DNA of 64,000 nucleotides, from the NCBI GenBank assembly GCA_963729625.1, contig CAVSOU010000008.1:896001-960000 (forward strand), in the 5' to 3' direction. The notes beneath the pieces are model-generated. The model ran no database searches. It was not told where the DNA came from and worked only from the letters and a program-made list of their open reading frames with translations. Source of the stretch: an uncultured bacterium. Lineage in GTDB: Bacteria; Chloroflexota; UBA5177; JANWHV01. The translations under genes and the position numbers were made by a program. Position 1 is the stretch's first letter. Each line of letters opens with the position of its first letter. Shown here piece after piece: positions 30,858-63,626 of the stretch.

Positions 30858-30889
30858 AGCATAACAGCCGAGCATTAGGCGGGCATTAG
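30858..30889 (-). promoter_or_regulatory. Direct-repeat promoter element, copy 1
   Basis: Minus strand CTAATGC-CCGC-CTAATGC-TCGGCTGT-TATGCT. Confidence 0.8.
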
Positions 30890-30913
30890 GCGGACCGGCG
30901 AACGTGCGACGCG

Positions 30914-31819
30914 CTAGCCCTGCCATCCGTCGCCGAGTCGCAGTCGCAAGTCGTCGTCAGATAGGCCGGCAGCGCGGTCACCTCGTTGGAGCCCAACCGC
31001 AGACTCCACCGGCCAGCCGCTCGCTTCCGCCAGCCACGCTGCACTCACGCTCCCGCTGCGTACCACATGTAGCGCCGGCGCTTCGTCCAGGAGCGGCAGG
31101 CGGATTCGCGTGTGATCGCTGAACGCTCCAGCCGACTCCATGCGTGCGTCATGGGCGACGAAATCGAAGGGCACCTGCTCTCGCATGGACGCCCAGTCGG
31201 CAAGTGCATGCAGGGAGTAGAATGGTCGGTTCCGCGCGTCGCTCAACGGAAGCACGCGGTACAGCGCTCCCCTTGCTCCACCAGCTGCGAGCAACTCCGC
31301 CAAGAGCGTCCAGGCAATATCGTGCATCCACAGGAAGGCGGCGTGAGGTGCCGCCCCGGCGATATCGATCGGCATATGATTGGCGCCAACCTCTTGATAT
31401 GGAGTCGTGGCCGAGCCACACGGACCGTGGCTCGGCACTGCAGCCTGACCCAGGGGTGCGACTACCTCGAGCGGCGCCGAGACGCTGGCATAGAGCTCGA
31501 CCAGCCGCTCGGGTAGACGGAAGGCTGGATGCACCAGTGAAACGTCGATCAGTGGAATGGCGGCTCGAGGAGACGCGAGAAACACCGGTATCCGTGGGTA
31601 TGCCCGCAGAGTGGCGGACTTCCCACCGCGCCCGCCCGCTTCGCGAGCCAGCTCGTGCGACGCTCTGCCCAGCACGTGAAAAACGCCGGAATAAAAGGCT
31701 GACGACCGGCCAGATGCCAGCTCGCGCGCCACAACGCCGAGATGCCGGATGTCATTCAGCCAGTACACCGGCAGGCGCCGCGCCCCCACGGTCAGCCATT
31801 CCGGCGGGGTCATTTGCAT
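30914..31819 (-). CDS. Hypothetical protein (301 aa)
   Basis: Long ORF with protein-like composition downstream of promoter copy 2; no family recognised. Confidence 0.6.
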   Translation of the reverse strand: MQMTPPEWLTVGARRLPVYWLNDIRHLGVVARELASGRSSAFYSGVFHVLGRASHELAREAGGRGGKSATLRAYPRIPVFLASPRAAIPLIDVSLVHPAFRLPERLVELYASVSAPLEVVAPLGQAAVPSHGPCGSATTPYQEVGANHMPIDIAGAAPHAAFLWMHDIAWTLLAELLAAGGARGALYRVLPLSDARNRPFYSLHALADWASMREQVPFDFVAHDARMESAGAFSDHTRIRLPLLDEAPALHVVRSGSVSAAWLAEASGWPVESAVGLQRGDRAAGLSDDDLRLRLGDGWQG

Positions 31820-32007
31820 GCGGTTCTCGCTTCCAACACGCGACCTTCGCGCCTCGGCGAGGGATCAACGGACCAAGTAGGTGGCACCGCTAGCACAGAT
31901 GAGTCTGCATGATGCCGAGGCAGCACGTTACTGCGGGCCCTGTCACGATCGAGCATGCGTGCTCATCCGTGTGTGAATGTCGACCTACCGAGACAGCCCC
32001 GCGTCCT

Positions 32008-32039
32008 ATACTACGCGACCACCATTAGGCTGGCGTGAG
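32008..32039 (-). promoter_or_regulatory. Direct-repeat promoter element, copy 2 (degenerate)
   Basis: Minus strand CTCACGC-CAGC-CTAATGG-TGGTCGCG-TAGTAT; lacks the TG. Confidence 0.6.
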
Positions 32040-32161
32040 CCGGACAGCGCCAGCTGGACAGCTGGCGCTGTCCGCGTTCCCGCGGTCATCGATAACTCCA
32101 ACGCCGGTGCGTAACCGCTGCCGTGCACTGCTATACTCACGAGCAACCAGCACAGCACGAG

Positions 32162-33454
32162 GTGAAAGCGACGAAAGAGCCGGCGCTGCCGTACCAACGG
32201 AACATTGGCGAAGATGCCCAAACCCTTCTGGCCGGAAGCAGTACCGCCCCGCTGAGCAAACGGGCCATTGCTGGGTACTGTGCCGCCTCGGTCGGCTCTG
32301 GATTTTACTTCGCCTTCAGCAGCGCTGCCCTGCCTCTGCTGATCCCCAGCAGCAACGTGCTTCTCCTCAATCTGATGAGCAACACGCGTTCGATCGAAGG
32401 CACGGTGATCCAGCCGTTTATTGGCTCGTGGAGCGATCGCACCTGGACGCGCCTGGGCCGACGCAGGCCGTTCATGGCGGCTGCTCTGCCGCTCAGCGCG
32501 TTCTTTCTCGCACTGACTCCGGCGGCACCCGGCCTGCTTGGCATAGTCATGTGCATTGTCCTCTTCTCACTGTTCTTCAATGTGGCCGCCGATCCATACG
32601 CCGCGCTGGAGGCCGATATCGCGCCGCCTGCCCAGCGGCCCATCTTGAACGGCATGGCAACGACGGTCACATTCTTCGGCCAAGTCGGGCTCGGGCTGAT
32701 CCTGGGATTTGGATCATTTAAGGATCGTCTGCCGTCGTGGACGTACGCGCTGGTGGCTGCGGCACTCATGCTCAGCTGGCTGATCACGATCGGCTCCGTG
32801 CACGAGCGGCGAGAGTCGGCGCACATGCAGCAGCACTATAGCTTTCAGATCTATGTACGGGTGCTTCGTGCGCATCGCCAAGCGTTCCGCTGTCTATGCG
32901 CATTCTTCTGCTACAGCACTGGCATCAACGTCATCCTGGTGAACCTCACGCCTTACGCGACCCATGTCCTGGGTGTCGGCAAAGGCGAAGCCATCCAGTT
33001 GTTCCTCCTGGTTGTCCTGATGATCGGTCTGGTCACTTTGCCCGCGAGCTGGCTTGCCACGCGGATCGGGATTCGGGCGGTGCTGGCGGCCGGCATGGTG
33101 GTCATGGCCTTCGGTGCGATCGGCGTGCTCATGGCGCATTCCGTTGCCACCGTCATTCCGTGGATCCTGGTTGCGGGGATCGGGTGCGGTGGTGTTTCCG
33201 CACTCACCTGGCCGCTCCTCATGCAGCTCATACCGACGGAGCATGCCGGCGTCTTCGCCGGGCTCAAGACAAGCGCCGAATCGATCTCCGCGTTCTTCTC
33301 GGCCTTCGTGGCCTTCGCCATGATCGGGCTGTGGGGATACAGAAGCATCTTCCTCGCCCTGCTGCTCGCGATTACCGCGAGTCTGGTCGTGCTCCGGACA
33401 ATTCGGGAAAGCGAAGCGGCTCAGGAAGTCGCCGCGGCACTGGCAATCGCCTGA
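32162..33454 (+). CDS. MFS transporter (SLC45/GPH sugar-type)
   Basis: QPFIGSWSDRTWTRLGRRRPF, FNVAADPYAALEADI; about 12 TM segments. Start uncertain; TGCTATACT at 32129-32137 suggests a start downstream of ORF-track 32123. Confidence 0.9.
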   Translation: MKATKEPALPYQRNIGEDAQTLLAGSSTAPLSKRAIAGYCAASVGSGFYFAFSSAALPLLIPSSNVLLLNLMSNTRSIEGTVIQPFIGSWSDRTWTRLGRRRPFMAAALPLSAFFLALTPAAPGLLGIVMCIVLFSLFFNVAADPYAALEADIAPPAQRPILNGMATTVTFFGQVGLGLILGFGSFKDRLPSWTYALVAAALMLSWLITIGSVHERRESAHMQQHYSFQIYVRVLRAHRQAFRCLCAFFCYSTGINVILVNLTPYATHVLGVGKGEAIQLFLLVVLMIGLVTLPASWLATRIGIRAVLAAGMVVMAFGAIGVLMAHSVATVIPWILVAGIGCGGVSALTWPLLMQLIPTEHAGVFAGLKTSAESISAFFSAFVAFAMIGLWGYRSIFLALLLAITASLVVLRTIRESEAAQEVAAALAIA

Positions 33455-33556: not shown

Positions 33557-33588
33557 CTAACGCTCGCCTAATGCCTCCGTGCTAGGCT
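33557..33588 (+). promoter_or_regulatory. Direct-repeat promoter element, copy 3
   Basis: CTAACGC-TCGC-CTAATGC-CTCCGTGC-TAGGCT. Confidence 0.8.
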
Positions 33589-33727
33589 TGGCTTAAGTCT
33601 GAGGGCCGCTGTTGACGCACCGGGGGCACCAAGAGCGCGATGCTGCGTGCAGGTCAGTGCCGCCCCATCTTGTCTGCCGTCTGCAGCAGGCGAAGTCGGA
33701 CGAGTCATGCAGGAGGGGGATAGGACG

Positions 33728-35191
33728 ATGTACGGATCGAGCATAGGCAGCAGCGCAAGCTCGGCGCAAGGACCGGCCATCGGGGCGACGATCACGGCAA
33801 TGGTGGCGGGCGCAGGCGCCGCATTGAGCGCCTTCATGCCCTGGATCACGGCGAGCGCCAGCAACCAGAACGGATACTACAGCGCCACGAGCTACTCGTG
33901 GAGTGGCCTGGACGCGACAGTCCTGGACGGCTGGTTCGCGCTCGTGCTTGGCCTGGCAGTGGCGTTGATCGAGCTTGCGGTGCTGGTCCGTGGCCGTGAT
34001 GGAGGGCAAGCCCAGGGCATGGTGGAGGTCGCGCTGGCCGGCCTGCTCATTGCCGTCAGCGCGCGCTATATTGCCGCTGTGTCTGCCGTCAGCGGCGCGA
34101 TCGCCGGCTCTTCGCTGGCATGGCTGAAGAACTACCCATCAATCAGCGTCGGCGCCGGTTTGATTCTGGCACTGATCGCGGCGCTTGTCGTAGCGCTCGC
34201 AGGCTTCACGCGGATACTGGCCGGCGGGAGCGCCGAGGCCCTGCCGACGAGCACGACGTCGCTGGCGATAACGGGCAGGCCTCTGGTTTCAGAGCCGGGA
34301 TTCCTGTCGCAGGATTTCGTGACGGGTGACTTCAGTAGCGTGGCCTTCGCGGGCAATGAACATGGTGCGGCAGTGGGATCGCTCGGCACTCTGGCCTTCA
34401 CACACGACGGCGGCCGGACCTGGATGAGTCGGTTGACCGGTGACGTCACCAGCCTGCAGGCCATCGCCTTTACCGAGGACCAGGTGGGCTGGACGGTCGG
34501 CCGCTCCGGCACCATTCTGCACACCGGCGATGGTGGGAGAACGTGGCAACGCCAGGCAAGCAACGTACGCCAGGAACTGCGAGGTATCGCGTGTGCGAGC
34601 GCGATGGTCGCCTGGGCAGTAGGCGATCTTGGCACAATCGTGCGTACCGTCGACGGCGGAGCGACCTGGATCGTGGCTGAGAGTACGGGCCCAGGCGTGC
34701 TGCGTGCGGTGGCCTGTGCCGGGCCAAGGGTGGCGTGGATCGTGGGCGACGGTGGCACCATCCTCAAGTCAGCGGATGGCGGAGAGACGTGGGTCCCGCA
34801 GCGGAGCGACCTTGACCACAATCTCTGGGGCATAGCGTGCGTCGACGAGAATACGGCGTGGGCCGTGAGTCACCGGGGCACGATACTGTACAGCAGCGAC
34901 GGCGGCTCGACCTGGGTGGCACAGCGATCGGAGACCAGCCAGCCGCTGAACGCGGTGGCGTTCTACGACGCGCTCCACGGCCTGGCAGTCGGTCCCCGAG
35001 GCACGGTTCTCGTCACCACGGACGGCGGGCAGCGCTGGCAGCCGGCGCGGAGTGGCACAGACGTCGAGCTCTATGGCGCCCGCTGGGTAGGCGTCAAGGA
35101 GGCCTGGGTGGCCGGTTCCGCAGGTACGTTGTTGCACACCACCGATGGCGGTTTGACCTCGATGCAGGTACGGGTGCGCGAGTATCAGTGA
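33728..35191 (+). CDS. Four-TM membrane module fused to a 7-blade YCF48/BNR propeller
   Basis: SAFMPWITA...SWSGLD..VLDGW and four hydrophobic segments, then 7 repeats W.VG..GTI..T.DGG.TW; GGAGGGGG upstream of ATG 33728. Confidence 0.88.
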   Translation: MYGSSIGSSASSAQGPAIGATITAMVAGAGAALSAFMPWITASASNQNGYYSATSYSWSGLDATVLDGWFALVLGLAVALIELAVLVRGRDGGQAQGMVEVALAGLLIAVSARYIAAVSAVSGAIAGSSLAWLKNYPSISVGAGLILALIAALVVALAGFTRILAGGSAEALPTSTTSLAITGRPLVSEPGFLSQDFVTGDFSSVAFAGNEHGAAVGSLGTLAFTHDGGRTWMSRLTGDVTSLQAIAFTEDQVGWTVGRSGTILHTGDGGRTWQRQASNVRQELRGIACASAMVAWAVGDLGTIVRTVDGGATWIVAESTGPGVLRAVACAGPRVAWIVGDGGTILKSADGGETWVPQRSDLDHNLWGIACVDENTAWAVSHRGTILYSSDGGSTWVAQRSETSQPLNAVAFYDALHGLAVGPRGTVLVTTDGGQRWQPARSGTDVELYGARWVGVKEAWVAGSAGTLLHTTDGGLTSMQVRVREYQ

Positions 35192-35664
35192 CCTGCTCAC
35201 GTCCGAAGAGTGAAGTGACCCTTCTCGGCTTGCAGGGCCGACCACACAGTCGCTCTCGGAATCCCGGTTACATGGGTCGGGATGCCAGAGTGACTTTGTT
35301 GGCGGCAACGGCGCCAATCCGGGTGGGTGCTGGACCTGGATCCTGAAGGGCACCGCGGACTACTACGGCGCTGGCGGGCACGGCTTCGTCATTTGCGGCG
35401 GCTGAGCATCGGCATTCGCAGGGGAGCCGACGGAACGCCGGTCGTTACGCCGCTTGGCGATGCGCCGCGAGGCTAGAGTGGCGTGAGCGGGATTTGAAGG
35501 GCCGAGGGAGAGTGAGCGATGAGCTGCTGGAGAAGATGAGTGCTTCCGACGGGACTGGCTTTGGCATTGCTCGCCCCACTTGGCCGGACGGGCTGCGTAG
35601 CCTCGAGTCAGCTCACCGCATCAGAGCTTGCGGGCGTTGTTCAGCTTCAATGGGAGGACGTAGC

Positions 35665-36696
35665 GTGGGCACTTGGATTGCAGGCCTGGCAACTGCCGCG
35701 AGTCTATTGGTAACGAGCCTGGCTCCGCTGGGAAGCATTGCGGTGGTAGCAACTTCGGCCGCCGTCTCGCCTAACTTCACCTTCTTCTCTCTTCCAGGTC
35801 GCAGCTCCCCTCGATTCGTGGAGCGCGGAGCAGACGGGAGTATCTGGTTTGCCACGGACAGAGGTATGGGGCGCGTAACGCCTGCCGGCCGGATTATCGA
35901 ATACGCCGCACCAGCCGGCGAGCCGATCTTCGAGGTGGGTGGGATCACGGCAGGTCCGCTTGGCAGAATATGGTTCACAGACGATCGTCTCTCGATTGGC
36001 TGGATAGCGCCGTCCGGTGCGATGGGAGAGTTTCCACTGCCCCAAACTGTCGGGTATGGTCGGCTTGGCGGCATCGCTGCCGGGCGCGACGGCAATCTCT
36101 GGTTTACCGAGGTGGACCTCGGGCGTATTGGCCGGATGTCGCCGACAGGCACAATTCATGAGTTCTCGGTCCGCGGCACTCCACCGACGGACATTCAGGC
36201 GACATCCAACGGAACTGTCTGGTTCGCTAGCTCCTACGACAATATGGTGGGGACCATCGACGGCAACGGCCGCGTGCGCACGTACCGCCTGCCTAGGACA
36301 TTTGCGTGGGGAGGCGGGGGGCCGCAAGCCATAGCGGCCGATGCGAAAGGCAATCTGTGGTTTAGTATGCCCAACACCGGCGGCGAAGGCGGCGGGCCAG
36401 GAAGTCTGCCAGAGGGCGGAGGGATCGGAAGGATCGATTGGGCAGGCCATGTGCTACTGTTTCCGACGCAGGGCATGTATCCGTCCTGCATCGCCGTCGA
36501 CCACCAGGCCAATGTCTGGTTCGGGTCCTTCCGGCGCAACGTCTTGGGACGAATGACGGCTAACGGGACGCTCGAATCATACGCACTCCCGGGAAAGGAG
36601 AGTACCGTCACTGACCTCACAGTGGGCGGCGACGGCAGCATCTGGTTTGCCGATATGGAGAATAACCGCATAGGACGCTTCAGACCATCGCAGTGA
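35665..36696 (+). CDS. Secreted Vgb (virginiamycin B lyase)-like beta-propeller protein
   Basis: Signal-like N-terminus; repeats G.DG.IWF, GI.AG.DGNLWFTE...RIGRM; GGGAGG RBS before GTG 35665. Confidence 0.87.
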   Translation: MGTWIAGLATAASLLVTSLAPLGSIAVVATSAAVSPNFTFFSLPGRSSPRFVERGADGSIWFATDRGMGRVTPAGRIIEYAAPAGEPIFEVGGITAGPLGRIWFTDDRLSIGWIAPSGAMGEFPLPQTVGYGRLGGIAAGRDGNLWFTEVDLGRIGRMSPTGTIHEFSVRGTPPTDIQATSNGTVWFASSYDNMVGTIDGNGRVRTYRLPRTFAWGGGGPQAIAADAKGNLWFSMPNTGGEGGGPGSLPEGGGIGRIDWAGHVLLFPTQGMYPSCIAVDHQANVWFGSFRRNVLGRMTANGTLESYALPGKESTVTDLTVGGDGSIWFADMENNRIGRFRPSQ

Positions 36697-36879: not shown

Positions 36880-36911
36880 CTAATGGCGGCCTAATGCTCA
36901 GGTGCTAGGAT
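36880..36911 (+). promoter_or_regulatory. Direct-repeat promoter element, copy 4
   Basis: CTAATGG-CGGC-CTAATGC-TCAGGTGC-TAGGAT. Confidence 0.8.
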
Positions 36912-37156: not shown

Positions 37157-40100
37157 GTGAATGTACTGAGCCGCCGATGCTGCTCTGCCGCACTGCTGTT
37201 GCTCACGCTGGTCCAACCGACCTTCGACTATGCGCACTCAGCCGTGGCAGCAAGCGGCAACGCAGCCAGCGACCTACGCGTCTCGCGCGGCTCACTCGTT
37301 GCTGGTGACTCGACCTGGTCTGTTCAGAACTCCGGGTCGCGAGAATCTCTGATGGGCGTGAGCTGCCGCACCAAGGGAGACTGCGTAGCCGTAGGCACGA
37401 ACGGTGCCATTCTGACCAGCTCCGATGGCGGAGCTTCATGGACCGGCAGGACGTCGGGCACAAGCCGTACGCTGCTTGGCGTGAGCTGCCCGACTCCCAG
37501 CACCTGTGTTGCCGTCGGTGACGCAGGCACCGTCTTGACCAGCTCCGATGGCGGACTACGCTGGGTGAGCCAGACCTCAGCCACCAGCAGGGCCCTGTTC
37601 GCCGTTAGCTGTCCTGACGCGAGTATCTGCGTCGCCGTGGGCAATAGCGGCGTCATCCTGACCAGCGCGAATGGAGGCGCCAGCTGGACAAGCCACGCCT
37701 CAGGCACGACCAATCAGTTCACTGGTGTCAGTTGCCCAAGCATCAACGACTGTGTGGCTGTGAGCGGGATCGGCACCATCGCAACGAGCCGAGACGGTGG
37801 CACGACCTGGGCGAGTCGGACGATCAGCGCCGGCTCGAGCGTGTTGGCCGTCAGTTGCATCAGTGTTAGCGCCTGCGTGGCGGTTGGTAATAGCGGAACG
37901 ATTCTGACAAGCAAAGATATTGGCGCAACCTGGACACGCCGGGCCTCAAGCACCACCGCGTTGCTCCGTGGGGTCACCTGCGCTAGCGACGGCGCCTGCG
38001 CCGCGGCAGGTTATGGCGGCACCCTGCTCCTCAGCATCGACGGTGGAGCGACCTGGACCCGCCGATTGTCGGGTACCGGCAACGATCTGGAAGCTGCCAG
38101 CTGCCTAAACAAGACTTCCTGCGTGATCGTGGGCGGCAAGGGCACCATCCTGCAAAGTCATGCTTCGGCTATCTCGCAGCCAAGTTCGCACAGCGTGGCA
38201 CGAGTTGCCAAGGGCATGGCCTGGATCGCGCGATCTTCAGGTACCCTGCATGGCCTACAGAACGTGGTCTGCCCGACTACCAAGCACTGTGTAGCAGTCG
38301 GCGGATGGGGAACCGTTATCAGTGACGATGGGGGTACCACTTGGGCAGCTGCTCGTGGCGGTGGCAACGCCAATGGCGTCAGTTGTCCGAGCATAGAGAT
38401 GTGCGTTGCCGTAGGCGGTAGCGGCCTGATCCATACCACTAACAATGGTGGCCGTACTTGGCACGAAAGCCGGATCAGGGAGGGAAGCAATCTGTACGGC
38501 GTAAGCTGTCCGACGGCCAGGGACTGTGTTGCCGTCGGCGAGATAGCTATGCAAGTTCTTGTCGAGACCAGCGGTGACGGCGGGAGCACCTGGACTCCGC
38601 AGCGACTCGCTCAGGGTGTCGGCGCTGTAGCGGTGAGCTGTGTCAGCACCGGCCTGTGCGTTGCGGTCGGCGGCGCCCCACACGGCAGTCCTGAACGACG
38701 AGCGATTCTTACCTCGGATGACCGAGGTAGCGCCTGGGCTATTCAGTATTTGGGCATCGGCTCCACGCTGTGGGGCGTCACATGCTTGAGTACCGGCTCG
38801 TGCATTGCGGTTGGTGACGGTGGCACCATTCTGACCAGCAGCGACCGCGGTAGGACTTGGACCAGCCGTGCTTCGGGCACGACCAAGTGGTTGCAAGGGG
38901 TAAGTTGTGGCAGCGCGACCTGGTGCGTCGCCGTTGGCGAAACTGGCTCGATTCTGAGCAGCGCCGATGGTGGAGCGACCTGGACGCACCAAAACTCGGG
39001 CTCAGGCCGCGATTTGTTCAGAGTCAGCTGCCCGAGCAGCAGCCTTTGTGTGGCCGTCGGCCAGAGCGACACGATTCTCCAAGGTCGCGCAGCGAGCAGT
39101 ATCACCACGCCCGCTCCCCTCACGTCTAACCAGCAACGTCTGGCCAAGGCGATCGGTCAGTACGCGACCATGCTCGATGCCGCCTTCGTCCAGATCGAGG
39201 GCGTCACCAAGGAGCTGGGACGCGAAGGACAGTATTACCGTGACCAGGTGCACGCTGACCAGTACAAGGTGTGGACCAGCATTGGCCAGGCCGCGATCGA
39301 CACGTGTATCGCCGGCTGGGGCGCGATCGACGGTCATACCAGCTCAGACATCCTCGCTCGGCTTACCAGCGTTTCCACGGACTTCGGCATGGGCTATGCC
39401 AAGAAAGCCAGTATAGAATCCCTCTCGACAGCGTTGGTTCGACGCCTGGCCGATCACTCGCTTGACGATCAAGCGGGAATCATCGCCAGTATTTTCGATC
39501 GATCGCTACGACCTGCCCTCGACAAGGACCTCGCGCAACTGAAGCACAACCCGCCCGATCTCTCCACCAGCGATACCGATGCCGCAATTCACGCTCTGCA
39601 GATGCGGGAGGACGCGCTCGGCTGGATCGGCATTCGGCAGCCCGATGGTAGCGCGGCGATCCTCCAGGAAGCATTCTATAAGCAAGGGAGCTCGCACGTC
39701 GGCGCGGACCTGGTCAGTGATCTCTGGCAGACGGCCGCGCCCCTCATGGCCGATGCGCTCGTGCCGGGTAGCGGCGTCGTGGCGTCCGCGCTGATCGGCT
39801 TATGGAACACGGCCGTAGCACAGCAGAAGCTTACGGCCGACGAGCAGGTGGTGGCAGAATATCAGCTAGCCCTGCTCTCCATGGAAACGTACGCTAGCCG
39901 CGTGCACGATGCGGCGACTCTGGTCATTGGCAGCCTGCGAGCAAAGCCGGTGGTCGTCGGCAAGCTGCTCTCAGGCACTTTGGGCAATCTGCAGATTACG
40001 GACAAGCGCACGGCGCCGACACGCACGAATCACGACGGCACGCTGCGCGAGCATCTGAACCTCACGGTTGAGAACGCCAGCCCAGCCACGCCGTTTCACC

Positions 40101-50928: not shown

Positions 50929-51088
50929 ACCGAGTCCCTCCCCTTTCAACAAGCCGCGCACCAGCTCTCCGCGTGGTTGCCTTCGAGTCGTTGGCGGAAC
51001 GACTCCATCTCTATGCCCCGATACCTGCCGCTGGCCTTGCGTCGCATCGTCCGTCCGGTCTCCCCATCACCATGCATCCCACAAACAT

Positions 51089-53683: not shown

Positions 53684-53715
53684 AGCATAACACGATGCCA
53701 TTAGGTGACCATTAG
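53684..53715 (-). promoter_or_regulatory. Direct-repeat promoter element, copy 6
   Basis: Minus strand CTAATGG-TCAC-CTAATGG-CATCGTGT-TATGCT. Confidence 0.82.
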
Positions 53716-54059: not shown

Positions 54060-54799
54060 CTACCCCCACACCGGCCCGTGAGGCGTGATTCCGGTCGCCT
54101 GGGCGCTCGCTCGGTCGCCGCTCTTACCGACGACTACCACCATGACCGCGTACTTGTTGGAGGATGCTTGGATATCGAACGTGAGCGTCGGACGCTCGAA
54201 CGCGCCAGCACTGTCGGTTGTCCCTTGCCGGCGATAGACGTTCGTCTGCGTCACCCCAGTCGTGTCTGGAGCGATTACGGTGTACGCCACGGTGATGCCT
54301 TCCATGGGTACGAAGCCCTTGCCAGACAGCTGGCAGGCGATCTCACTCGCGCTACTATGCGCGCAGGCAAAGAACAGCCGTGGGCGTGCCGAGGGTATGC
54401 TGGCACTGGCAAAGTCGCCGTCGTCCCCGGCCACCGTGGCGGTAATGCGGTAGCCCGGATAGGAAGCGTCGAGCATGAAGTAGAATGCGGGCCGCAGGAA
54501 GCTGCCCTGCGTGTCGACCACACCGCGGCGCTGATAGGTGGGTCTTCTGCGCGCTCGGTCCACCAACACCCACGGTGACGATGTACGTGATCGAGATCCC
54601 TTCTGCGGCGACGAACCCGCTCCCCGAGATCTGGCAGGCAGCCGACGTGCCAGCCCGAGACGGCGCACGCGAGGGTGACATGCGGGCCGGCTGCCGCGGC
54701 GCCGGCAACGCCAATAAGGGATGGCAGTAGTACAACCGCGGAGAGCGCCGCGCATACCTGGAGCGCGAGCCTGCGTGCCGCACAACGCGATTTGACCAT
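54060..54799 (-). pseudogene. Secreted protein with two tandem Ig-like repeats, split by two frameshifts (possibly sequencing errors)
   Basis: GGAGG RBS, signal MVKSRC...GAAAAGP; ACQISGSGFVAAEGISITY and ACQLSGKGFVPMEGITVAY repeats distributed over three frames. Confidence 0.72.
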
Positions 54800-55172
54800 A
54801 GCGCACCTCCATGTACCTGGACCTGACAGGGTGAAGACGGACCTTCGACTTGCCTTACATGCAACCTCCAGCTTCGGCATGATGGCGGCGTGCGGGAGCC
54901 GGCTCCGGCCGGGTGTAGCGGCTTGCGTTCCATCCGCCAGCATGACCGAGCCGTGGCGAGGCCATTCGGGATTGCAGTCGTATGGAAGAGACGAGGCCCC
55001 CCGCGGCCGAATGGGTGGGCGGATGACTCCGCCGCATCGTCGCCGGCATGCCCCGCGAATCATCGCGCGTCGGCTCGGGGTTCCGCCGCAGCGGGTCGGC
55101 GCCAAGCGCGGGACCTATCCTGCCGCTGCGGGATCCGATGCCTGCCGGGCCGTGAGCCGGGCTGGCGCGTGC

Positions 55173-55856
55173 TCACGGCGAGCCGCCCACGTGCCAGGCG
55201 CCGGCAAGGACCGCGACCGCCCCTGCCACGGCTACCAGCCAGAGCCCCGCGCCCGTGCTCACCGACACGTAGCTCGCCAGCCAGCTAAAGCCCGAGCTCT
55301 TGAGCGCCATGGCCGTGGCGTTGACCGCAGCGATGTCGCGTGCCGAGACCGCCAGCAGCCCTGCCCCGAGCACGATCTCGGCCATTCCCAGCCCCACCCT
55401 GCCCTCCTTCCGGCGAGTCCAGGCGAGCAACGGGACCAAAACGAGGGCGCAGCCGAGCATCACCGCATACCAGCCGTCGAGCACCTGCGGGTCGAATCCA
55501 CTCCACGACACCGACGTGGTGGATGTATAGCTGTTGCCGGTGGAATCCTGAGTGTAACTGTTCTTCGCCGCGGTAATCCACGGCGTGAACGCCGCGATCG
55601 CGGCCGTGGCACCGGCCGCCAGGGCGAGCCAGCTTGCCACGGACGCCAGATCGGACCCGGGCACCTCCTCAGTCTGGCCGGGCACGCGGGGCAGCTCGCT
55701 CCTCACCGTCGGCTCCTGGATCTGCCGCCCGTCGGCACGAGGAATATCGACCGTCGTCGTCGCGCCGAGTGGATAGCCGCATGCCCAGCATCGCTGGCGA
55801 TCGCTCCTGTTCAGGTTCGGCGTGCTACAGCGCGGACAGCGCACCTCTTCGTCCAT
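55173..55856 (-). CDS. Zinc-ribbon plus four-TM membrane protein
   Basis: CPRC...CWACG, then AAFTPWITA...SWSGFD.QVLDGW; GGAGG RBS. Confidence 0.85.
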   Translation of the reverse strand: MDEEVRCPRCSTPNLNRSDRQRCWACGYPLGATTTVDIPRADGRQIQEPTVRSELPRVPGQTEEVPGSDLASVASWLALAAGATAAIAAFTPWITAAKNSYTQDSTGNSYTSTTSVSWSGFDPQVLDGWYAVMLGCALVLVPLLAWTRRKEGRVGLGMAEIVLGAGLLAVSARDIAAVNATAMALKSSGFSWLASYVSVSTGAGLWLVAVAGAVAVLAGAWHVGGSP

Positions 55857-55895
55857 AGCAGCCTCCATAGAGCCCGGCGTCAGCCTGCTCTTCTC

Positions 55896-56330
55896 CTACG
55901 ACCAACCCTGCCGGTTCATATTCTCGGCCGATTTGTAGGCGTCCACGATGTTCCAGATCCAGAGGATCGGCGTGGTGATGAAGCCGATAACGGCGAGAAT
56001 CAGGATGCAGGAGATCACGCTGAACACGAAGAACAGGATCGCTTTGCCGAATTGCCCGTTGTAGATCTGGCCGAGCCCGGGGATGAAGAATGAGAGCACC
56101 GCTGCCAACCCGGCGCTCTTCTCGTTCCGGACGTAGACCGTTTGGGGCTGGCTCATCGGGGGCGCATAGTACATCGGCGGCGGCGGCGCGCCCCACGATG
56201 GCGCCGGACTCCCCTGCACCGCGTTGGCTGCGACCGCGATCGGCGCGCCGCACTTCTGGCAGAACCTCGCGTCAGCCTGCAGCCTGACGCCGCATTTAGC
56301 GCAGAATTCCGCGCGCGAGTCCTCGTACAC
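55896..56330 (-). CDS. Zinc-ribbon plus TM2-like membrane protein
   Basis: FCAKCG...FCQKCG, Pro-rich linker, KSAGLAAVLSFFIPGLGQIYNGQFGKAI...WNIVDAY. Confidence 0.9.
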   Translation of the reverse strand: MYEDSRAEFCAKCGVRLQADARFCQKCGAPIAVAANAVQGSPAPSWGAPPPPMYYAPPMSQPQTVYVRNEKSAGLAAVLSFFIPGLGQIYNGQFGKAILFFVFSVISCILILAVIGFITTPILWIWNIVDAYKSAENMNRQGWS

Positions 56331-56421
56331 TGTCGATCTCCTTCCGCCACAGATCTCAGATCCCGGGCCACCGCGTCGCGGCTCCGTTCTGCCGTGCCTG
56401 AAGTGCCCGCTACCGGCACAC

Positions 56422-56453
56422 AGCATAGCAGCCAAGCATTAGGCGGGCATTAG
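56422..56453 (-). promoter_or_regulatory. Direct-repeat promoter element, copy 7
   Basis: Minus strand CTAATGC-CCGC-CTAATGC-TTGGCTGC-TATGCT. Confidence 0.82.
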
Positions 56454-56720
56454 GCGGCGAGCCGCTCGCGGCGGGCGTTGCTTCCATGATCCGGAACGGG
56501 ATGCTGTGCCTCACCACTCCGCAGCGATATCAGCAGGCACGACCGCGGCGACGCTGGTGGCGGGTGTACGGCAGCGCGACGCGATGCGGCCGGGTGCGCC
56601 GGCCACTGGAGATCGCTAGCAGGCATGGCGCGGGCCCCAGAGCGCCGCGCTACTCCGTGGTGCACACAGCAGCCGCGCTACCGGCCTCGGCGCGTGGGGA
56701 CGGTTGAAGCGCGAGACTCT

Positions 56721-57179
56721 TCACGGGGCCGACTTCGACGCCCATGGGGCGCCGGCGGAGGGAGGAATAACGACCTCAAGATCGGGGAGCATGCGCCCAA
56801 GATCCAGCGCGTCGAAGGTCAGCAGGAGGTCGACGCGCAGTTGGGCGTGGGCGCCGATGAGGAAGTCTGCCAGGATACACCGGGGCCAGCCTACCCCGCT
56901 CGCCTGGCGGCGACCCGCATAGCTGCGATAGGATGCCGCCGCAAAGAGCCAGACGTCGCGCGCGAGATCCACCTCCACACCGATCTCGGCGGCTAGGAAG
57001 CGATCGAGCGAGGCCACCTGCATACCCGGCGCGTCCGCGAGCTCCGCGTAAACGGGACCGCTAACCACCAAGCCTACCGAGCCGATGAAACGATCCAGAA
57101 AGGGAACGAGAACCGACGCGCTCGCGCCGTCGCCACGCAGGACCGGCAGGAGCACGTTCGTATCCACGGCAGCAGACAT
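56721..57179 (-). CDS. vapC: PIN-domain (VapC-type) toxin
   Basis: AVDTNVL, VYAEL, ADFLIGAHA, LLTFD. Confidence 0.88.
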   Translation of the reverse strand: MSAAVDTNVLLPVLRGDGASASVLVPFLDRFIGSVGLVVSGPVYAELADAPGMQVASLDRFLAAEIGVEVDLARDVWLFAAASYRSYAGRRQASGVGWPRCILADFLIGAHAQLRVDLLLTFDALDLGRMLPDLEVVIPPSAGAPWASKSAP

Positions 57180-57201
57180 ACGTGTCTATGCCCCCGGCAC
57201 G

Positions 57202-57477
57202 TCAGGGCACGTCATCGCCGGAGCGGATCGCACGCAGGAACGCCGCGTCGTCCGCGGGACCCGTGCCGGCCGGGTGCGGGGCGATCCCGACCACCGTGCG
57301 GAGAGAGGGCCCGGCCGCCGTGCGCCCAGCAGGCAGGACCAGAAGCGAGCCGCGCGTCGTGCGCGCGAACGCGACGCGATCTCCGGGCTGGATGCCGGCC
57401 GCGCGCAGCGTCTCGGCGGGAATCACCACCCCCCGCTCGGACACGGTCACTTCCGGCAGGTTGCTCGCTTGCTGCAT
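57202..57477 (-). CDS. AbrB/MazE/SpoVT-type antitoxin
   Basis: VTVSERGVVIPAETLRAAGIQPGDRVAF; directly upstream of the PIN toxin. Confidence 0.82.
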   Translation of the reverse strand: MQQASNLPEVTVSERGVVIPAETLRAAGIQPGDRVAFARTTRGSLLVLPAGRTAAGPSLRTVVGIAPHPAGTGPADDAAFLRAIRSGDDVP

Positions 57478-57692
57478 CGGCACCCTCTGGACGCGCCCCT
57501 CGGTCCCGGGCGGCGGACACCGACCTGCTGTCAATCCTGCAGCACCGCTGCTCCACGACGGCGTGCGCCTCGCTCGCCTCGAGTATAGCCCAGACAACCA
57601 CTGCAAGATACTATTGCTTATCCTGCACGCATGTGAGGCGTACAGCATAGTGATGCGGCACGCTGTGGTCGAGCTTGCCCCTGCGCCGTCGC

Positions 57693-57724
57693 CTAACGCC
57701 GGCCTAATGGCACGGTGCTATAGT
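57693..57724 (+). promoter_or_regulatory. Direct-repeat promoter element, copy 8
   Basis: CTAACGC-CGGC-CTAATGG-CACGGTGC-TATAGT. Confidence 0.82.
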
Positions 57725-57823
57725 GCGCGTGGGGCCACGCCACTCGCCGGTTGCCCCGTGCCAGGCATCGCACCTTGCCGCCCGTTGGACGGCGGCAGAC
57801 GATAGACGGAACAGGAGGCCGCA

Positions 57824-58790
57824 ATGTCTCGAGCCGTGTCAACCTGTCTCTTCATCGCGCTTCTCACGCTCATGGCTCCGTGCTCCCGGGCCGAGGCTGG
57901 CCCGTCAGGGGCGAGCATCGCGGGCGTGCGCGTTTGCACTGCCGGCCATTACGATCACGCTGCATTCTTCTGCAGTCTCTCCGACACCGCGATAAGCGTC
58001 GATGCGTACCCGGCGGCGCGCCTCTCTATCTCGGGGCTGGCCGGGGGCACATTCACGAGCAATACGCTCACGCTTCATGCTGGAGCAGCGCACGGCGGAC
58101 GGGTTCGCAGAGTTGGGGCGGTTGAGCCTGGACGTCGGCCTCGCCGACACCGTCACCACGCTGCAACTGCGCACCGCGTTTACGCGGCTCGGCGTGCAGC
58201 CGCTCGTCGGCACCACGTATCGCGTCGAGGCAGACGAGACGAACGGCAGCCAGCAGCTCCTGCTTGGGGTGGCAGTCTTCGCCCTGCGCGCGGCCGCGCC
58301 GGCCGTCGTCACGTCGGGCGGAACGCAGGCGCTTGTGATCATCAAGCAGTACGGCGCCGCTCTCCGCTCCTATCCATCCAGCGACGCGCCAATCCAGACG
58401 ACGCTCTCCTGCGGCGCCAGGGTGGCGTCATTCGACCTGCAGAACGGCTGGTACCACGTGAGGACCGCCGCCGGTTCCGTGGGCTGGGTGGGCGGCGCGC
58501 GTGCCGCACCGGTCGCCGGCGCCCCGACCTACAACTGCAGCAACGCGATCACCTATCAGGTCGGCACGCGCGTGGTGACGCATGTGGCCAGCGGCTGTCT
58601 GAGCCTGCGGGCCACCCCGTCGCGCCAGGCGACCTACGCCCACTGCGTGCCAAACGGGCACGTCTACGTGATCATCAATGGGCCGATCAGCGTGGCCGGC
58701 GAGGACTGGTTCGGCGTGTTCAGCTCGTCGACCGGAAGCGGGTGGTCCCTGGCGAACTACCTTCTTCTTTACGACACATCCGGTGAGTGA
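57824..58790 (+). CDS. Secreted protein with two C-terminal bacterial SH3 domains; frameshift near 58075
   Basis: AGGAGG RBS and signal peptide in the first frame; ALRSYPSSDAP...NGWYHVR...GWV and LSLRATPS...DWFGV...GWSLANYL in the second. Confidence 0.8.
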
Positions 58791-59576: not shown

Positions 59577-60200
59577 TCAGCGCGCCGGAGCTGCAATGCC
59601 GTACACCTCTCGCACCCGGTTGTTGCGCGCGCTGTCGTGGGACCACGCGAGCGTTAGCATACCGAGCGCCACGTCGGAAACTATCTTATGGACCCTATCG
59701 GTGTGCCTATCCCAGATCCACAGGTTCGCAGTGTCGCTGCTCGTCATCCCGTTTGAGAATGCCAGGAAGCGGCCGTTCGGCGACCAGGCATTGTAGCCCG
59801 ACCTAGGGGCGTCCCCAAGAGGAGGGTAGTAGGGGCTGGATGACCACGCCCCAGCCAGTATCCGAATCGCGCCGCTCAGGACGTTGATGACCGCAAGCTG
59901 TACGTGGGCGGCCTCGATGGCGATCATCGATCCATCCGGAGACCACTGCAGCGCCTGCACACGCCACGGCGTCCGGAGCGCGCGTGCTCGTCCGCCATCA
60001 ATGGACTTGACGTACAGTTTCCCGCCCGTCACGTATGCCAGCAACTGACCAGTTGAAGTTGCCTGCGCTCGAAATTCAGCGCGGGCGATGCCGGCGCCGC
60101 CCATATTGCTCCGGCTCGAGGCTTGGCAAGGCGAGGTATTGACCGCAAGGGCCAACAGCATCGTCACCCACCACCGTGACGACATGCTACACATTTCCAT
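59577..60200 (-). CDS. Secreted TolB-like (PD40/WD40) propeller protein, probably truncated
   Basis: Signal peptide; LQWSPDGSMIA, AWSPNGRFLAF, AWSHDS; only about three blades before the stop. Confidence 0.75.
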   Translation of the reverse strand: MEMCSMSSRWWVTMLLALAVNTSPCQASSRSNMGGAGIARAEFRAQATSTGQLLAYVTGGKLYVKSIDGGRARALRTPWRVQALQWSPDGSMIAIEAAHVQLAVINVLSGAIRILAGAWSSSPYYPPLGDAPRSGYNAWSPNGRFLAFSNGMTSSDTANLWIWDRHTDRVHKIVSDVALGMLTLAWSHDSARNNRVREVYGIAAPAR

Positions 60201-60277
60201 CACTCCTCAACATCCGCCCGGGCGTCGACACCGCAGCGACCTGCCCGCACTCTGCGTCGTGTACGTCACCGCCGCAC

Positions 60278-60309
60278 AGCATAGCAGCACGCCATTAGGC
60301 CGGCATTAG
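60278..60309 (-). promoter_or_regulatory. Direct-repeat promoter element, copy 9
   Basis: Minus strand CTAATGC-CGGC-CTAATGG-CGTGCTGC-TATGCT. Confidence 0.82.
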
Positions 60310-60366: not shown

Positions 60367-62325
60367 CTACGGTGTGCTTGCCACGACGGCCACCGCGCGA
60401 TCGTTGCCCCGGTCGAGCTCCGCGATCGCGCCGTCGGGATTGACTACGGCACTGGCTCGCAGCAGGCCGCCGGCCAGGCCACCTGGCACGGTCAGCGTCA
60501 GAACCGCGTCTTCGTAGATTCCCAGCTCGCCCCTGCAGCGCACGACCATGCTGCCGGCGCACGACATGCCGGTTGCGTGCCGCGTCCCGGCATCGCCCGC
60601 GCCCGAGATCCTGCTCTCCAGCAGCACGCCTCCGGCCGGACGGGCGCCGATGTTGCGCACCACGATCGTGAAGCGCGCCCCAACGGCATTCTCCAGCCGT
60701 TGCGCGGTGACCGTCACCGCAAGGTCGGCATACGGCGGCTGCAGCAGGTCCGGGCGCGCTCCCGCGATAACCTGCGCCGCCGCGGCCGGTGTGCGCGTGG
60801 TGCGGCCAAGGGCGAGACCGTGGTTGGCCCCCACGTCGGCAAGTGGGTTGAGGCAGGTGTCTTTGCCGAGCGCGATCGCGCGCGCGAACGGACTCGTACC
60901 CGGCAGGTCCGAGGGCGCCAGCCACTGCGTGTCGATATTCACCGACGAAAGCGCGGGCACGGATGGGCACGGCGCAAACACGTAGTCGCGCGGATTACCT
61001 ATCGTGAGTAAGCGGATCCCGTGGCCGCGAGCTTCCGCGGCGAGCGCCTGGTTGGTAACCTTCGCCCCATACAACACCCGCGAGACGCTCGCCTGCCCGC
61101 CGCGGGGATGCACGTGCGCGGGAATGGTATGGGCGATGGCGTACATCTGCTTCAGATCGCGGAACGGCGGCAGTCCGCCAACCGGCACTTGCGGCAGCAG
61201 CATGGCAGGGCAGTGCGGGCGGTAGTACTTGCTGCTCAGCCACAGCCCGGCCGCGTCGGGTATGCCGCCCAGCGGCGAGTCGATCGTGATAACACCGCCG
61301 AGTCGCCCGCCGTTCGGCAGCTTCCAGCCGAGCTGCTGGCGGAGGAACGCCACGTAGGCCAAGGCGATCAGGCCGCCCTGACTGTGCCCGACCAGGTAGA
61401 CTGTGCCTCCGTGGTGCGTCCGCAGGTAGCCCGAGATCATCTCATCCAGGCGCACCACATCGTCGTCGATAGTATTGGTGAACGTGTCCTGGCAGGCGAA
61501 GCGCGCGGGGTGCCAGCGCCCCTTACCGTCGAAGCTGCCACCGTTGTAGCTGAAAGGAATGAACGCCGGCGCGCGCGCGTGGAGCTTCGAGAGCTCGGCC
61601 TTCACACCCTTCTGGAAGCCGTCGAAATAGCCGTCGCCGCTCCTCGAGAGCACCCCGGGAATTAGGATCACGGCGCGGGGGGCCGGCGCGGGCGGCGCAC
61701 CGACCTGGATCGTGGTGCGGACCCAGCCGCGGTTGTCGCTTGTGTTGTCGCTGTACGCGTCGTCGTTGAAATTGAGCCACAGCGGACCGCTGCGCGGCGC
61801 CGCATGGCGGTAGCGCGAGCCGACGAGGAACACCTTGCGCGCCTCCGGCAGCACGCGCCGCGAGACGTAGCTGCCCGGCCCTGGTGGGTTGTAGCCGATG
61901 TACCCGATCAGCGCCGCCCAATGAGCGACGGCAGTTCGCGCGCACCAACTGCAGACGCCGATGTCGCGCAGATTGAGAAAGTTGTCCTGCGATTTCGACT
62001 GCAGCACCCGGTAGCCATCCGGGCCGGCGCTCGGGCGACCGGTATCGGGCGACCAGGAACCCGCCGCGGTGATCGCGATCCGTTCTCCTTGCCGCACCAT
62101 GAGCCCGGTGTACGCCCAGTGGGCGGAGGCGGTCACCACCATCTGGCGGCGACCGTAGGCGGACGCCGGCGCATCGGCGACGCTCCGGGCGACCTGACTC
62201 TCCACGGTCCTGACGGACGCCGTCGCCGCCGCCGCCGCGGGCAAGCTGGCCGGCGCGAGCGGCGCGATCGCCGTGCCCAGCAGCGCCAGCACGGCAAGCC
62301 AGTGACTGATACTGGTGCTACGCAT
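60367..62325 (-). CDS. Secreted LecA/PA-IL-like domain, alpha/beta hydrolase and CARDB/DUF11 fusion protein
   Basis: Signal peptide; WAYTGL.VRQGERIAITAAGSW...ALIGYIG...SGPLWLNFNDDAYSDN; VILIPG, GHSQGG, ITIDSPLGG; DLAVTV...VRNIG...VNPDGAIAELDRGND. Confidence 0.82.
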   Translation of the reverse strand: MRSTSISHWLAVLALLGTAIAPLAPASLPAAAAATASVRTVESQVARSVADAPASAYGRRQMVVTASAHWAYTGLMVRQGERIAITAAGSWSPDTGRPSAGPDGYRVLQSKSQDNFLNLRDIGVCSWCARTAVAHWAALIGYIGYNPPGPGSYVSRRVLPEARKVFLVGSRYRHAAPRSGPLWLNFNDDAYSDNTSDNRGWVRTTIQVGAPPAPAPRAVILIPGVLSRSGDGYFDGFQKGVKAELSKLHARAPAFIPFSYNGGSFDGKGRWHPARFACQDTFTNTIDDDVVRLDEMISGYLRTHHGGTVYLVGHSQGGLIALAYVAFLRQQLGWKLPNGGRLGGVITIDSPLGGIPDAAGLWLSSKYYRPHCPAMLLPQVPVGGLPPFRDLKQMYAIAHTIPAHVHPRGGQASVSRVLYGAKVTNQALAAEARGHGIRLLTIGNPRDYVFAPCPSVPALSSVNIDTQWLAPSDLPGTSPFARAIALGKDTCLNPLADVGANHGLALGRTTRTPAAAAQVIAGARPDLLQPPYADLAVTVTAQRLENAVGARFTIVVRNIGARPAGGVLLESRISGAGDAGTRHATGMSCAGSMVVRCRGELGIYEDAVLTLTVPGGLAGGLLRASAVVNPDGAIAELDRGNDRAVAVVASTP

Positions 62326-63547
62326 AGTACTGATCCTTTCGCCGGCCAGGAAGGTGCGCGTCGGGCAGCACGAGCCTGGCCACGCGATCGAGGACCAGCC
62401 CCACCACGATCACGATGCCAATCGCGAGCTGCTGCCAGAATTGGCTGACGCCCGCGAGCAGCAGCTCGTTGGTGAGCGCGGCGACGAGGATGGCCCCAAA
62501 CGCGGCGCCGGCAATGCTCAGCGCGTCTCCGCACAAGAGACCACCGCCTCCGACGACGGCGGCTGCCGCAGCCGGCACGAGATACTCGGAGCCCATACCC
62601 GGATCGAATGCCTGAACCCTGCCGAGCAGCAAAATGCCGGCCACCGCGGCGAGCGTGCCCGCAACCACGTGCGACAGCATAGCCACGGCAGGCGTGCCCG
62701 GTCTTGCGGTGGTCGGCCCGGGCGCTCCACCGGGGCCGGATCCAGGCAGCGCGAGCACTACCGCGGTCAGCACCACCCCTGCCACTAGGGCGGCGCCGAT
62801 CTCCACGAAGCCCGCGTTGTCCCAGGAGAGTGCATCCACTAGGTCCTCGACGAATCTAATAGGATAATCGCTAATCAGTAACGTGATACTGGTGATGGCG
62901 GCCATGCTGCCAAGAGTGATGGTGACCGACGGCAGGCCGAGCACCCCGACCAGCGCTCCGTTCGCGATGCCGCAGGCAACTCCCGCCAGTATCCCGGCGG
63001 CAACCGCGGTGACGCCGGGCTGGCCGTTCGCGGCCATCCACGCGCAGAATCACGCGCTCAGCCCCATGGTGGCGCCGACCGAGAGATCGATGCCGCCGGT
63101 AAACATCACCAGCGCAAGCCCGACGGCCGGCAGGCCGATGATCCCGGCGTCGAAGCCCAGCACTTGCAGGTTGGTCGAGCTAAAGAACAGGTCCGGCTTT
63201 GCGAACGCCAGCAAGACCACGAGCGCGGCGGCCATCGCGCCAAAGCGAAGCGCCATGGCCAGAAGGCTCGCGGGGCTCAACTCCAGCGCGGACGCCCGGT
63301 TGGGCGCGCCGGCTCGCGGAGGCGCGTACTGCCTTGGACCGGTCGGGCGGAGCGCGGCACTCAGGATGGCCGGAGGCTCCGGTCGCCGGCCGGAGGAGGA
63401 TCCTTGTACGTCGCCGCCCGCGGTTCCGCCGTCCGCGGGGTGTCCGGCGGAAATCGCGCGTCCACAGCGCGGGCAGAAGCTCGCCCGAGTCGCGGGAAGC
63501 GGCGACCCGCATCGCCCGCAGAACAGGGCTCTCTCCTCGGTCGTCAT
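62318..63547 (-). CDS. Zinc-ribbon fused RbsC-type (BPD_transp_2) ABC permease with in-frame TGA at 63050-63052
   Basis: FCGRCG...FCPRCG, then GGIDLSVG, GIANGALV..LGLPSVTITLG, AAAVVGG, GVSQFWQQ; both ORFs are in the same frame. Confidence 0.8.
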
Positions 63548-63594
63548 CGTGCACCATCCCCTCGCAGATGGCTGGCCGACCAGCCGACGACCCA

Positions 63595-63626
63595 AGGCTA
63601 ACAGACCGCCATTAGGCCGGCATTAG
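63595..63626 (-). promoter_or_regulatory. Direct-repeat promoter element, copy 10
   Basis: Minus strand CTAATGC-CGGC-CTAATGG-CGGTCTGT-TAGCCT. Confidence 0.82.

Follow-up and report, generated by a model that had tools for sequence, protein, structure and literature searches.

This report concerns a short promoter-like element, two direct heptamer repeats followed by a −10-like hexamer (CTAAYGS-N4-CTAATGS-N8-TANNNT), in a 64-kb stretch of DNA from an uncultured Chloroflexota bacterium (the window, positions 896001–960000 of the 1.03-Mb contig C8). We found 23 sites of this element in the genome, 22 of them in a single block of ~105 kb that also encodes two predicted members of the family of Streptomyces antibiotic regulatory proteins (SARPs), here called SARP-A and SARP-B. 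The element probably marks class-II-like promoters that are served by the housekeeping sigma factor and activated in SARP fashion. Behind this reading stand the sites themselves, the way they are oriented and confined to the block, the SARP fold, and the co-conservation of box and genes in a distant relative. An earlier note, written from the letters of the window, had suggested that a winged-helix activator of SARP type, or a family of paralogues, co-induces the whole set, and the in silico evidence supports that suggestion.

A string search of both strands of the window found nine exact matches to the pattern, against a mean of 0.00 and a maximum of 0 in 100 dinucleotide shuffles. When up to three mismatches were allowed, a single extra copy appeared (32008–32039, minus strand; distal heptamer CTCACGC, one mismatch), and the shuffles averaged 0.21 and never exceeded 2. 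The earlier note had counted ten copies of a rigid element; nine are exact, with the coordinates and strands that it gave, and the tenth is a near copy. Its other descriptive claims agree with our searches. The hexamers are TATGCT (four times), TAGTAT, TAGGCT, TAGGAT, TAGAAT, TATAGT and TAGCCT, TG stands one base before the hexamer in 9 of the 10 copies, and no copy was found in 1–24113 by either the mismatch search or the weight-matrix scan. All ten sit between accepted open reading frames (ORFs), each aimed at an ORF on the same strand, and the distance from hexamer end to first usable start, put at about 50–250 nt for nine copies, was measured as 47–277 nt. Two caveats apply: the site at 57693–57724 falls within a 207-residue ORF (57182–57805, plus strand) that has no family match and may be spurious, and the site at 56422–56453 overlaps the longest possible start of its downstream ORF. 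The copies, with their weight-matrix scores, are as follows.

Box 1: 30858–30889, minus strand, 52.3 bits; aimed at a transposase insertion (29366–30403, plus strand) and then a BNR gene (26005–29352, minus strand)
Box 2, weak variant: 32008–32039, minus strand, 24.4 bits; CTCACGC as distal heptamer, no TG; upstream of a 301-residue gene of unknown function (30914–31819, minus strand)
Box 3: 33557–33588, plus strand, 47.4 bits; BNR/PSII_BNR gene 33647–35191 and Vgb_lyase-like gene 35494–36696 downstream
Box 4: 36880–36911, plus strand, 43.4 bits; 1393-residue BNR/sortilin-like gene 37157–41338, small ORFs and TPR gene 42562–43617 downstream
Box 5: 43664–43695, plus strand, 41.5 bits; 360-residue ORF 43757–44839 downstream (GC3 0.59, no family match)
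Box 6: 53684–53715, minus strand, 45.8 bits; PBP1c-type gene 51089–53623 and alpha-2-macroglobulin gene 45241–50961 downstream
Box 7: 56422–56453, minus strand, 53.9 bits, the highest; zinc-ribbon membrane protein gene 55896–56435 and three minus-strand ORFs down to 53712
Box 8: 57693–57724, plus strand, 47.3 bits; SH3_3 protein gene 58002–58790 downstream
Box 9: 60278–60309, minus strand, 50.6 bits; 208-residue propeller-like gene 59577–60203 downstream
Box 10: 63595–63626, minus strand, 44.7 bits; occupies the 35-bp gap behind gene 63631–65133; zinc-ribbon ORF 63050–63595, then 62318–63037, then 60367–62325 downstream

The weight matrix made from the window copies was scanned over the whole 5.41-Mb assembly (21 contigs, GC ~63%, rated 87% complete with 5% contamination). 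It returned 23 sites at 24.4–53.9 bits, with the interval from 12 to 24 bits empty; apart from one site at 24 bits they score 37–54 bits, and the reversed-genome control reached at most 16 bits. Twenty-two sites lie on C8 at 926858–1020295 (window coordinates 30858–124295, extended beyond its end), a span of 94 kb. The 23rd belongs to contig C13, whose opening 4963 bases are 94.4% identical to C8:1018336–1023309, and because it belongs to such a copy we regard it as a strain variant or duplication and not as an independent site. The candidate regulon is larger than the ten copies described earlier, with 23 sites genome-wide that are restricted to one block and its C13 duplicate. As a separate observation, C13:16768–26393 copies part of contig C18, and C13 overall is 94–96% identical to parts of C8 and C18, which suggests a second strain in the bin or a segmental duplication. 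The boxes beyond the window, in extended coordinates, are at

68805 (minus), 77484 (minus), 77860 (plus), 85291 (minus), 88215 (plus), 97899 (minus)
98071 (plus), 101268 (plus), 105691 (plus), 119855 (minus), 120400 (plus), 124264 (plus)

Every C8 site lies between accepted genes and is aimed at an ORF on its own strand, the first usable start being mostly 25–280 nt past the hexamer (genes were called by a script that weighs ORF length against GC3, and gene starts are predictions). By a hand reading of the gene map, a box is present at 22 of ~25 transcription units in 26005–130905. The unboxed units are a major facilitator superfamily (MFS) gene at 32123–33454, SARP-A with the small ORF behind it, and a doubtful ORF at 56721–57179.

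Information content over the sites limits conservation to a core of ~35 bp, with flanks at about 0 bits. Each 11-bp unit of the core has ~8–9 conserved positions (GC-CTAATG-S) and 2–3 free ones. The spacing is as rigid as had been claimed, with heptamer starts 11 nt apart and the proximal heptamer exactly 8 nt from TANNNT in 23 of 23 sites. TANNNT, assigned as the −10 from its letters alone, agrees with the −10 consensus at a mean of 4.2 of 6 positions and is TATAAT itself in one site of 23, and TG precedes it by one base in 21 of 23. At a spacing of 16–18 nt, the best match to TTGACA, the usual −35 consensus, is at most 3 of 6 in 22 of the 23 sites. The half-sites are asymmetric: the proximal heptamer begins CTAATG in 22 of 23, and the distal one CTAAYG or CTCACG.

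This arrangement equals the published rule for SARP target promoters in its period and, if TANNNT is the −10, also in its distance, as the earlier note had held: the direct repeats have a spacing of 11 or 22 bp, and 8 bp separate the 3' one from the −10 (PMC10936776). The afs box has two 11-bp repeats overlapping the −35, on which two SARP protomers lie side by side and engage sigma region 4, AfsR contacting the first 8 bp of each repeat (PMC10936776). In the present sites the repeats are likewise one helical turn apart (23 of 23) and overlap a poor −35. A motif-free count over the genome of any heptamer repeated 11 nt later (at most one mismatch) and followed by N8-TANNNT showed only CTAATGC (11) and CTAATGG (7) as enriched; no other SARP-type heptamer with the same geometry was enriched in the genome, and all heptamers together gave 124 occurrences versus 133 in the reversed control.

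The two candidate regulators encoded in the block are

SARP-A: C8:981417–983894 (extended 85417–87894), plus strand, 825 residues, BTAD
SARP-B: C8:1025481–1026905 (extended 129481–130905), plus strand, 474 residues, BTAD

BTAD (PF03704) scores above its cut-off in both (37.9 and 49.9 bits versus 22.1) and is preceded in each by a weak Trans_reg_C match at residues ~74–127; the two proteins are 31% identical over 437 residues. Homologues of SARP-A residues 40–300 include proteins annotated 'SARP family transcriptional activator'. An AlphaFold model of this region (pLDDT 93.1, pTM 0.89) has as its six best PDB matches the AfsR SARP domains, solved within transcription initiation complexes (8hvr, 8k60), and EmbR (2fez, 2ff4), with TM 0.65–0.68 over the whole model (AfsR E ~4e-9, TM 0.68; EmbR Foldseek E ~4e-7). 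A family profile, which includes distant homologues besides SARP-A and SARP-B, matched AfsR with E 1.3e-76, the AfsR SARP domain alone (8hvr_I, positions 15–266) with 1.9e-36 and EmbR with 8.7e-26; a single-sequence PDB search with the SARP-A N-terminus gave nothing meaningful. By these models and profiles, both block proteins appear to have the makeup by which the SARP family is recognized, an N-terminal OmpR-type winged helix with BTAD directly after it.

The layout of SARP-A is BTAD at 161–292, a further domain at 295–475 and a STAND-type ATPase at ~480–620 (AAA_22 and NB-ARC-like matches at 482–619). The model of 295–475 (pLDDT 85.5) is best matched by class III adenylyl cyclase domains (Foldseek E ~1e-7, TM 0.62–0.65), and of 10 aligned homologues, 3 match Guanylate_cyc; searching for homologues of this segment gave one weak match only. 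Pfam gave no match to GerE, the LuxR helix-turn-helix, in SARP-A. SARP-B ends after the cyclase-like domain, and the predicted order of SARP, cyclase-like domain and large ATPase, with no LuxR helix-turn-helix, which is that of the SARP-LAL group, is found in SARP-A only. The ATPase half of SARP-A (~330–820) belongs to an expanded family, with 24 scored matches here and up to 27 in a same-genus genome, these being match counts and not copy numbers, among proteins with various N-terminal domains. A 112-residue ORF (extended 87891–88229, plus strand) overlapping the SARP-A stop shares 50% identity, over 64 aligned positions, with the N-terminal part of the stand-alone TPR protein 42562–43617, which itself weakly matches the AfsR TPR region (NCBIfam NF053617, E 1.7e-8). 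An AfsR-like TPR sensor may have been lost from SARP-A or become separated from it.

Adjacency of boxes to BTAD genes, which the earlier note had proposed to check, is found: the block holds two BTAD proteins, and two sites flank SARP-A. One (85291–85322, minus strand) lies 95 nt upstream of SARP-A and is divergent from it; the other (88215–88246, plus strand) lies right behind the small ORF after SARP-A and heads an operon of kinase and FHA-domain ABC transporter genes. The unit that begins at the box 124264 (plus) ends with SARP-B and also has an FHA-ABC transporter and a kinase. When AfsR was aligned by hand with SARP-A and SARP-B, its base-contacting residues T88 and R92 fell opposite E and K in the former and Y and R in the latter; since these residues differ, the two proteins may read different half-sites. 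The recognition region of the closest SARP-A homologue, P0002 (63% identity), is nearly identical, with two conservative changes in LWPDKELADPANSLREVLSKLR.

Public metagenome contigs, scanned with a stricter pattern, yielded 15 loci. Eight of them (L138, L139, L141, L147, L148, L149, L151, L152; GC 63–68%) carry sites of 37–45 bits, show no similarity to the genome by blastn, and encode homologues of block genes at 36–68% identity (MFS 68%, FHA-ABC 58%, DUF3160 56%, the 30914–31819 gene 42–45%). Three SARP genes are present on these loci: that of L148 is 50% identical to SARP-A over 814 residues, that of L147 48%, and that of L138/L139 is nearest SARP-B in the SARP domain. L138 and L139 are one sequence recovered from two samples, as are L148 and L151, which leaves ~11 distinct sites, 7 strong and 4 weak. 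The box behind the MFS gene (Box 3) is orthologous in the genome, L147 and L149; its heptamers, TG and TA...T are kept while the rest of the post-MFS spacer shows no alignment to that of the genome (L147 and L149 resemble each other closely). The CTCACGC distal variant recurs upstream of the 30914–31819 homologues in L147 and L148. The remaining seven loci look like chance matches, and a search of the metagenome contigs for the contig of P0002 confirmed no relative. In a sequence-cluster atlas, the clusters nearest the SARP domain are commonest in Chloroflexota.

Searching genome contigs with the pattern of the earlier note gave at least 109 scattered single matches; those that were scored reach at most 34 bits and miss the extra conserved positions, so we read them as chance. 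Sixteen other genomes of the class gave no copy of the box (the genome counts for genus, class and phylum take in G018, a genome flagged as unpublished). In ~98 kb of relatives' loci, boxes of the same geometry gave 3 matches, which is the background level. One such element, TGAAACG-N4-TGAAACG-N8-TAGGCT, lies ~400 bp upstream of a SARP paralogue gene in a same-genus genome, on the opposite strand (L156, G004:C361), and could be that paralogue's own box.

We propose that the element is a promoter read by the housekeeping sigma factor and dependent on an activator, with an extended −10 (TG-N-TANNNT), no usable −35, and two 11-bp direct repeats (GC-CTAATG-S-NN) covering roughly −38 to −17. One or both of the block SARPs would bind the repeats in an AfsR-like mode, two protomers side by side and one per repeat, and would anchor sigma region 4 and RNA polymerase as a substitute for the −35 contact. 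Because ~22 of 25 transcription units carry the box, the whole ~105-kb block would be switched on as one unit, its surface and secreted proteins probably together, and the adjacent Ser/Thr kinases and the ATPase domain would be the likely inputs. We infer all four of the transcription start, the binding protein, activation rather than repression, and the signal. For window 51000–58000 a search of sequencing runs listed no RNA run and a single DNA run that shared a small part of its words, which counts neither for nor against expression.

Several observations weigh against this proposal. The box was not found in any of the four same-genus genomes, and 400 other genomes of the phylum give 5 single matches versus 3 for a backwards control pattern. 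Comparative depth is thin, the supporting metagenome contigs coming from few samples and several being mutually close. The Trans_reg_C matches fall below the Pfam cut-off in both SARPs (E 0.036 and 0.01), and SARP-A has no box in its own orientation. Eleven BTAD genes genome-wide and other regulators elsewhere leave several candidate binders. An extended −10 can function without a −35, and a protein at −38 to −17 could therefore repress. The repeats would then be the operator of a repressor, possibly the SARP-like proteins themselves, that blocks constitutive extended −10 promoters until a signal arrives, and TG-N-TANNNT, present in 21 of 23 sites with its mean of 4.2 of 6 to the consensus, could suffice as a promoter alone. 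We regard this as decidedly unlikely. With TANNNT as the −10, the geometry is exactly that of SARP activation, the BTA domain is the activation module that touches polymerase in AfsR complexes (PMC10936776), and most hexamers are imperfect (TATGCT or TAGGAT), TATAAT occurring once.

The same promoter architecture might also serve a different tandem winged-helix regulator from outside the block, of OmpR/PhoB/GlnR type or one of the nine BTAD proteins encoded there (9 of the 11 BTAD genes). Pho-type boxes, too, are 11-bp direct repeats that replace the −35, and the missing box before the SARP-A start would be accounted for. Such a binder is nevertheless unlikely, since Pfam detects no other DNA-binding regulator in the block, the sites are confined to the block that holds SARP-A and SARP-B, and the boxed metagenome contigs carry homologues of these two proteins and not of other regulators. 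Moreover, the same-genus genomes have SARP-domain paralogues (at most 42% identical to SARP-A) yet no box, and the 8-nt distance is the SARP figure (PMC10936776). The rigid spacing and the separation of site scores into two classes would also suit a dedicated alternative sigma factor, the heptamers being its −35 or an UP-like element and no separate activator being needed. However, a pair of identical direct repeats set one helical turn apart points to two protomers and not to one sigma region 4, neither repeat lies 16–18 nt from the hexamer as a hexamer-sized −35 would, and Pfam finds no sigma-factor gene in the block (one homologue outside the block has a weak Sigma70_r4_2 match), so that this explanation is very improbable. 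Finally, the presence of several insertion sequences (IS) in the block might point to a dispersed mobile repeat or recombination site with no promoter function. That idea is barely credible and we reject it, because the flanks carry no information: similarity stops at the 35-bp core, which relatives keep while their flanks diverge, and all sites lie between genes and are aimed at a same-strand ORF.

The block that SARP-type activation would control extends over extended window coordinates 26005–130905 (right end C8:1026905), and the window holds 26005–64000 of it. At its left edge lies

tRNA-Gly(ccc): 24041–24114, plus strand

In the same-genus genome G001 the same tRNA-Gly is followed by genes that here sit in the middle of contig C7; the locus has therefore been rearranged, and the block is not at that G001 locus. 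The comparison does not show a clean insertion of the block at tRNA-Gly, and the idea of a simple insertion there was set aside. Right after the tRNA, a 179-residue ORF (24604–25143, minus strand) has a protein kinase match confined to the C-terminal half of the domain (profile positions 95–198 of 263) and looks like a gene remnant at the block edge. A wider idea, which we put forward tentatively and consider rather doubtful, is that of a regulon island: ~105 kb of accessory DNA by tRNA-Gly with its own promoter code and its own SARP pair, in which ~22 operons for envelope and secreted proteins would stay silent until the island's own Ser/Thr-kinase and FHA modules fire. As part of the same doubtful idea, the half-site asymmetry suggests two different protomers; these could form a SARP-A/SARP-B heterodimer, a mode not reported in the available parts of PMC10936776 or PMC10972967.

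The genes of the block encode seven paralogous BNR/PSII_BNR propeller proteins, NHL and Kelch propellers, Vgb_lyase-like propellers with SH3 domains, several zinc-ribbon membrane proteins, PBP1c with alpha-2-macroglobulin, GH3, DUF3160 and DUF459/GDSL proteins, an MFS transporter, two FHA-domain ABC transporters, two Ser/Thr kinases and several transposases. Scans of submitted block ORFs against Pfam, NCBIfam and PADLOC (31 + 60, 38 and 66, respectively) detected no polyketide synthase, nonribosomal peptide synthetase or other biosynthetic enzyme. With no such enzymes detected, the block departs from control of a surrounding secondary-metabolite cluster, a typical SARP trait; many block proteins have no family match, and a novel pathway may be among them. 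A defence island was considered and rejected, the PADLOC matches being generic only: a kinase (PD-T4-6), an ABC ATPase and Uma2 (PDC-S03). By eye, the product of ORF 43757–44839 begins with a hydrophobic N-terminus ending in Cys that looks like a lipoprotein signal. The adjacent ORFs in 62318–63595 (minus strand; 181 residues with a zinc ribbon, and 239 residues) each match parts of ribose-type ABC permeases, and may be one frameshifted gene or a zinc-ribbon-permease fusion that has since split.

Four IS genes or fragments lie in the block, at 29366–30403 (plus) and, in extended coordinates, 120850–122202 (minus), 102947–103522 (plus) and 113462–114630 (plus). In two cases an IS stands between a box and a BNR-family gene. 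The earlier note had described Box 1 as facing an IS-disrupted region, and the opposite-strand transposase gene 29366–30403 (DDE_Tnp_1_6) indeed follows the site at 30858 (minus), with the 1115-residue BNR gene beyond it; at the site 120400 (plus) the transposase is of DDE_Tnp_1_4 type. Because the IS lies exactly between box and gene, these two BNR-family genes have probably dropped out of the regulon's control.

WhiB (PF02467) was not found in this genome (87% complete) or in any of 41 genomes of the phylum, this one included, and the control was positive in Corynebacterium only. The host is therefore not an actinobacterium. A 2024 review describes SARPs as 'exclusively found in actinobacteria' (PMC10972967), from which this host departs. 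That statement concerns distribution and not structure, so a non-actinobacterial host does not exclude membership of the family.

The earlier note did not recognize CTAATG as a described box, and a literature search short of full texts likewise found no described promoter box with CTAATG direct repeats for an activator, and nothing relevant on SARP or BTAD proteins in Chloroflexi. The promoter design is already known; new, as far as these searches show, are the sequence of the box, its occurrence in this phylum, the 22 targets within a single block and a cargo that is not biosynthetic. SARPs have been treated in the literature as switches of actinobacterial antibiotic clusters, and here the same grammar stands at 22 promoters of an uncultured, non-actinobacterial lineage, where the predicted targets are surface, secreted and signalling proteins and not a biosynthetic pathway. 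A 22-bp box, two candidate proteins and fixed spacers make a directly checkable prediction, and the box gives a handle for co-expressing ~60 genes of unknown function. It may also aid the annotation of Chloroflexota, whose promoters and regulons are essentially unmapped.

The closest known counterpart is AfsR with the afs box of the afsS promoter in Streptomyces coelicolor (8hvr, 8k60). Both boxes consist of two 11-bp repeats with ~8 conserved and ~3 free positions, and AfsR, like SARP-A, combines an OmpR-type DNA-binding domain with BTA and a STAND ATPase. AfsR is acted on by a Ser/Thr kinase (PMC10972967), and kinase genes adjoin both SARP genes here. The repeats themselves differ, being CGTT(T/C)ATCGNN for AfsR (PMC10972967) versus CTAATGS, and SARP-A lacks a TPR domain and carries, after BTA and ahead of the ATPase, a domain of cyclase homology. 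The present host is not an actinobacterium, and its 22 targets in one block contrast with the few promoters named for AfsR in the available text.

The SARP-LAL regulators of Streptomyces (PimR, SanG, PolR) resemble SARP-A in their described architecture: a SARP domain is followed by a region like guanylate cyclase and then by a large ATPase, a LuxR helix-turn-helix being absent, and their boxes are 22 nt long, with two heptamers and a 4-nt spacer (PMC5930380; PMC10972967). In the SanG and PolR sites two heptamers are reported to overlap the −35 (PMC10972967). PimR, as described in the available parts of these sources, has a single target gene in an antibiotic cluster, whereas 22 promoters are boxed here with no biosynthetic enzymes detected. 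A third comparison is offered by EmbR of Mycobacterium tuberculosis (2fez, 2ff4). EmbR has the SARP fold and is linked to Ser/Thr kinases, so that kinases and FHA domains occur in one signalling context in both systems, but the FHA domain is fused to EmbR itself, whereas here FHA domains are found on two ABC transporters in boxed operons.

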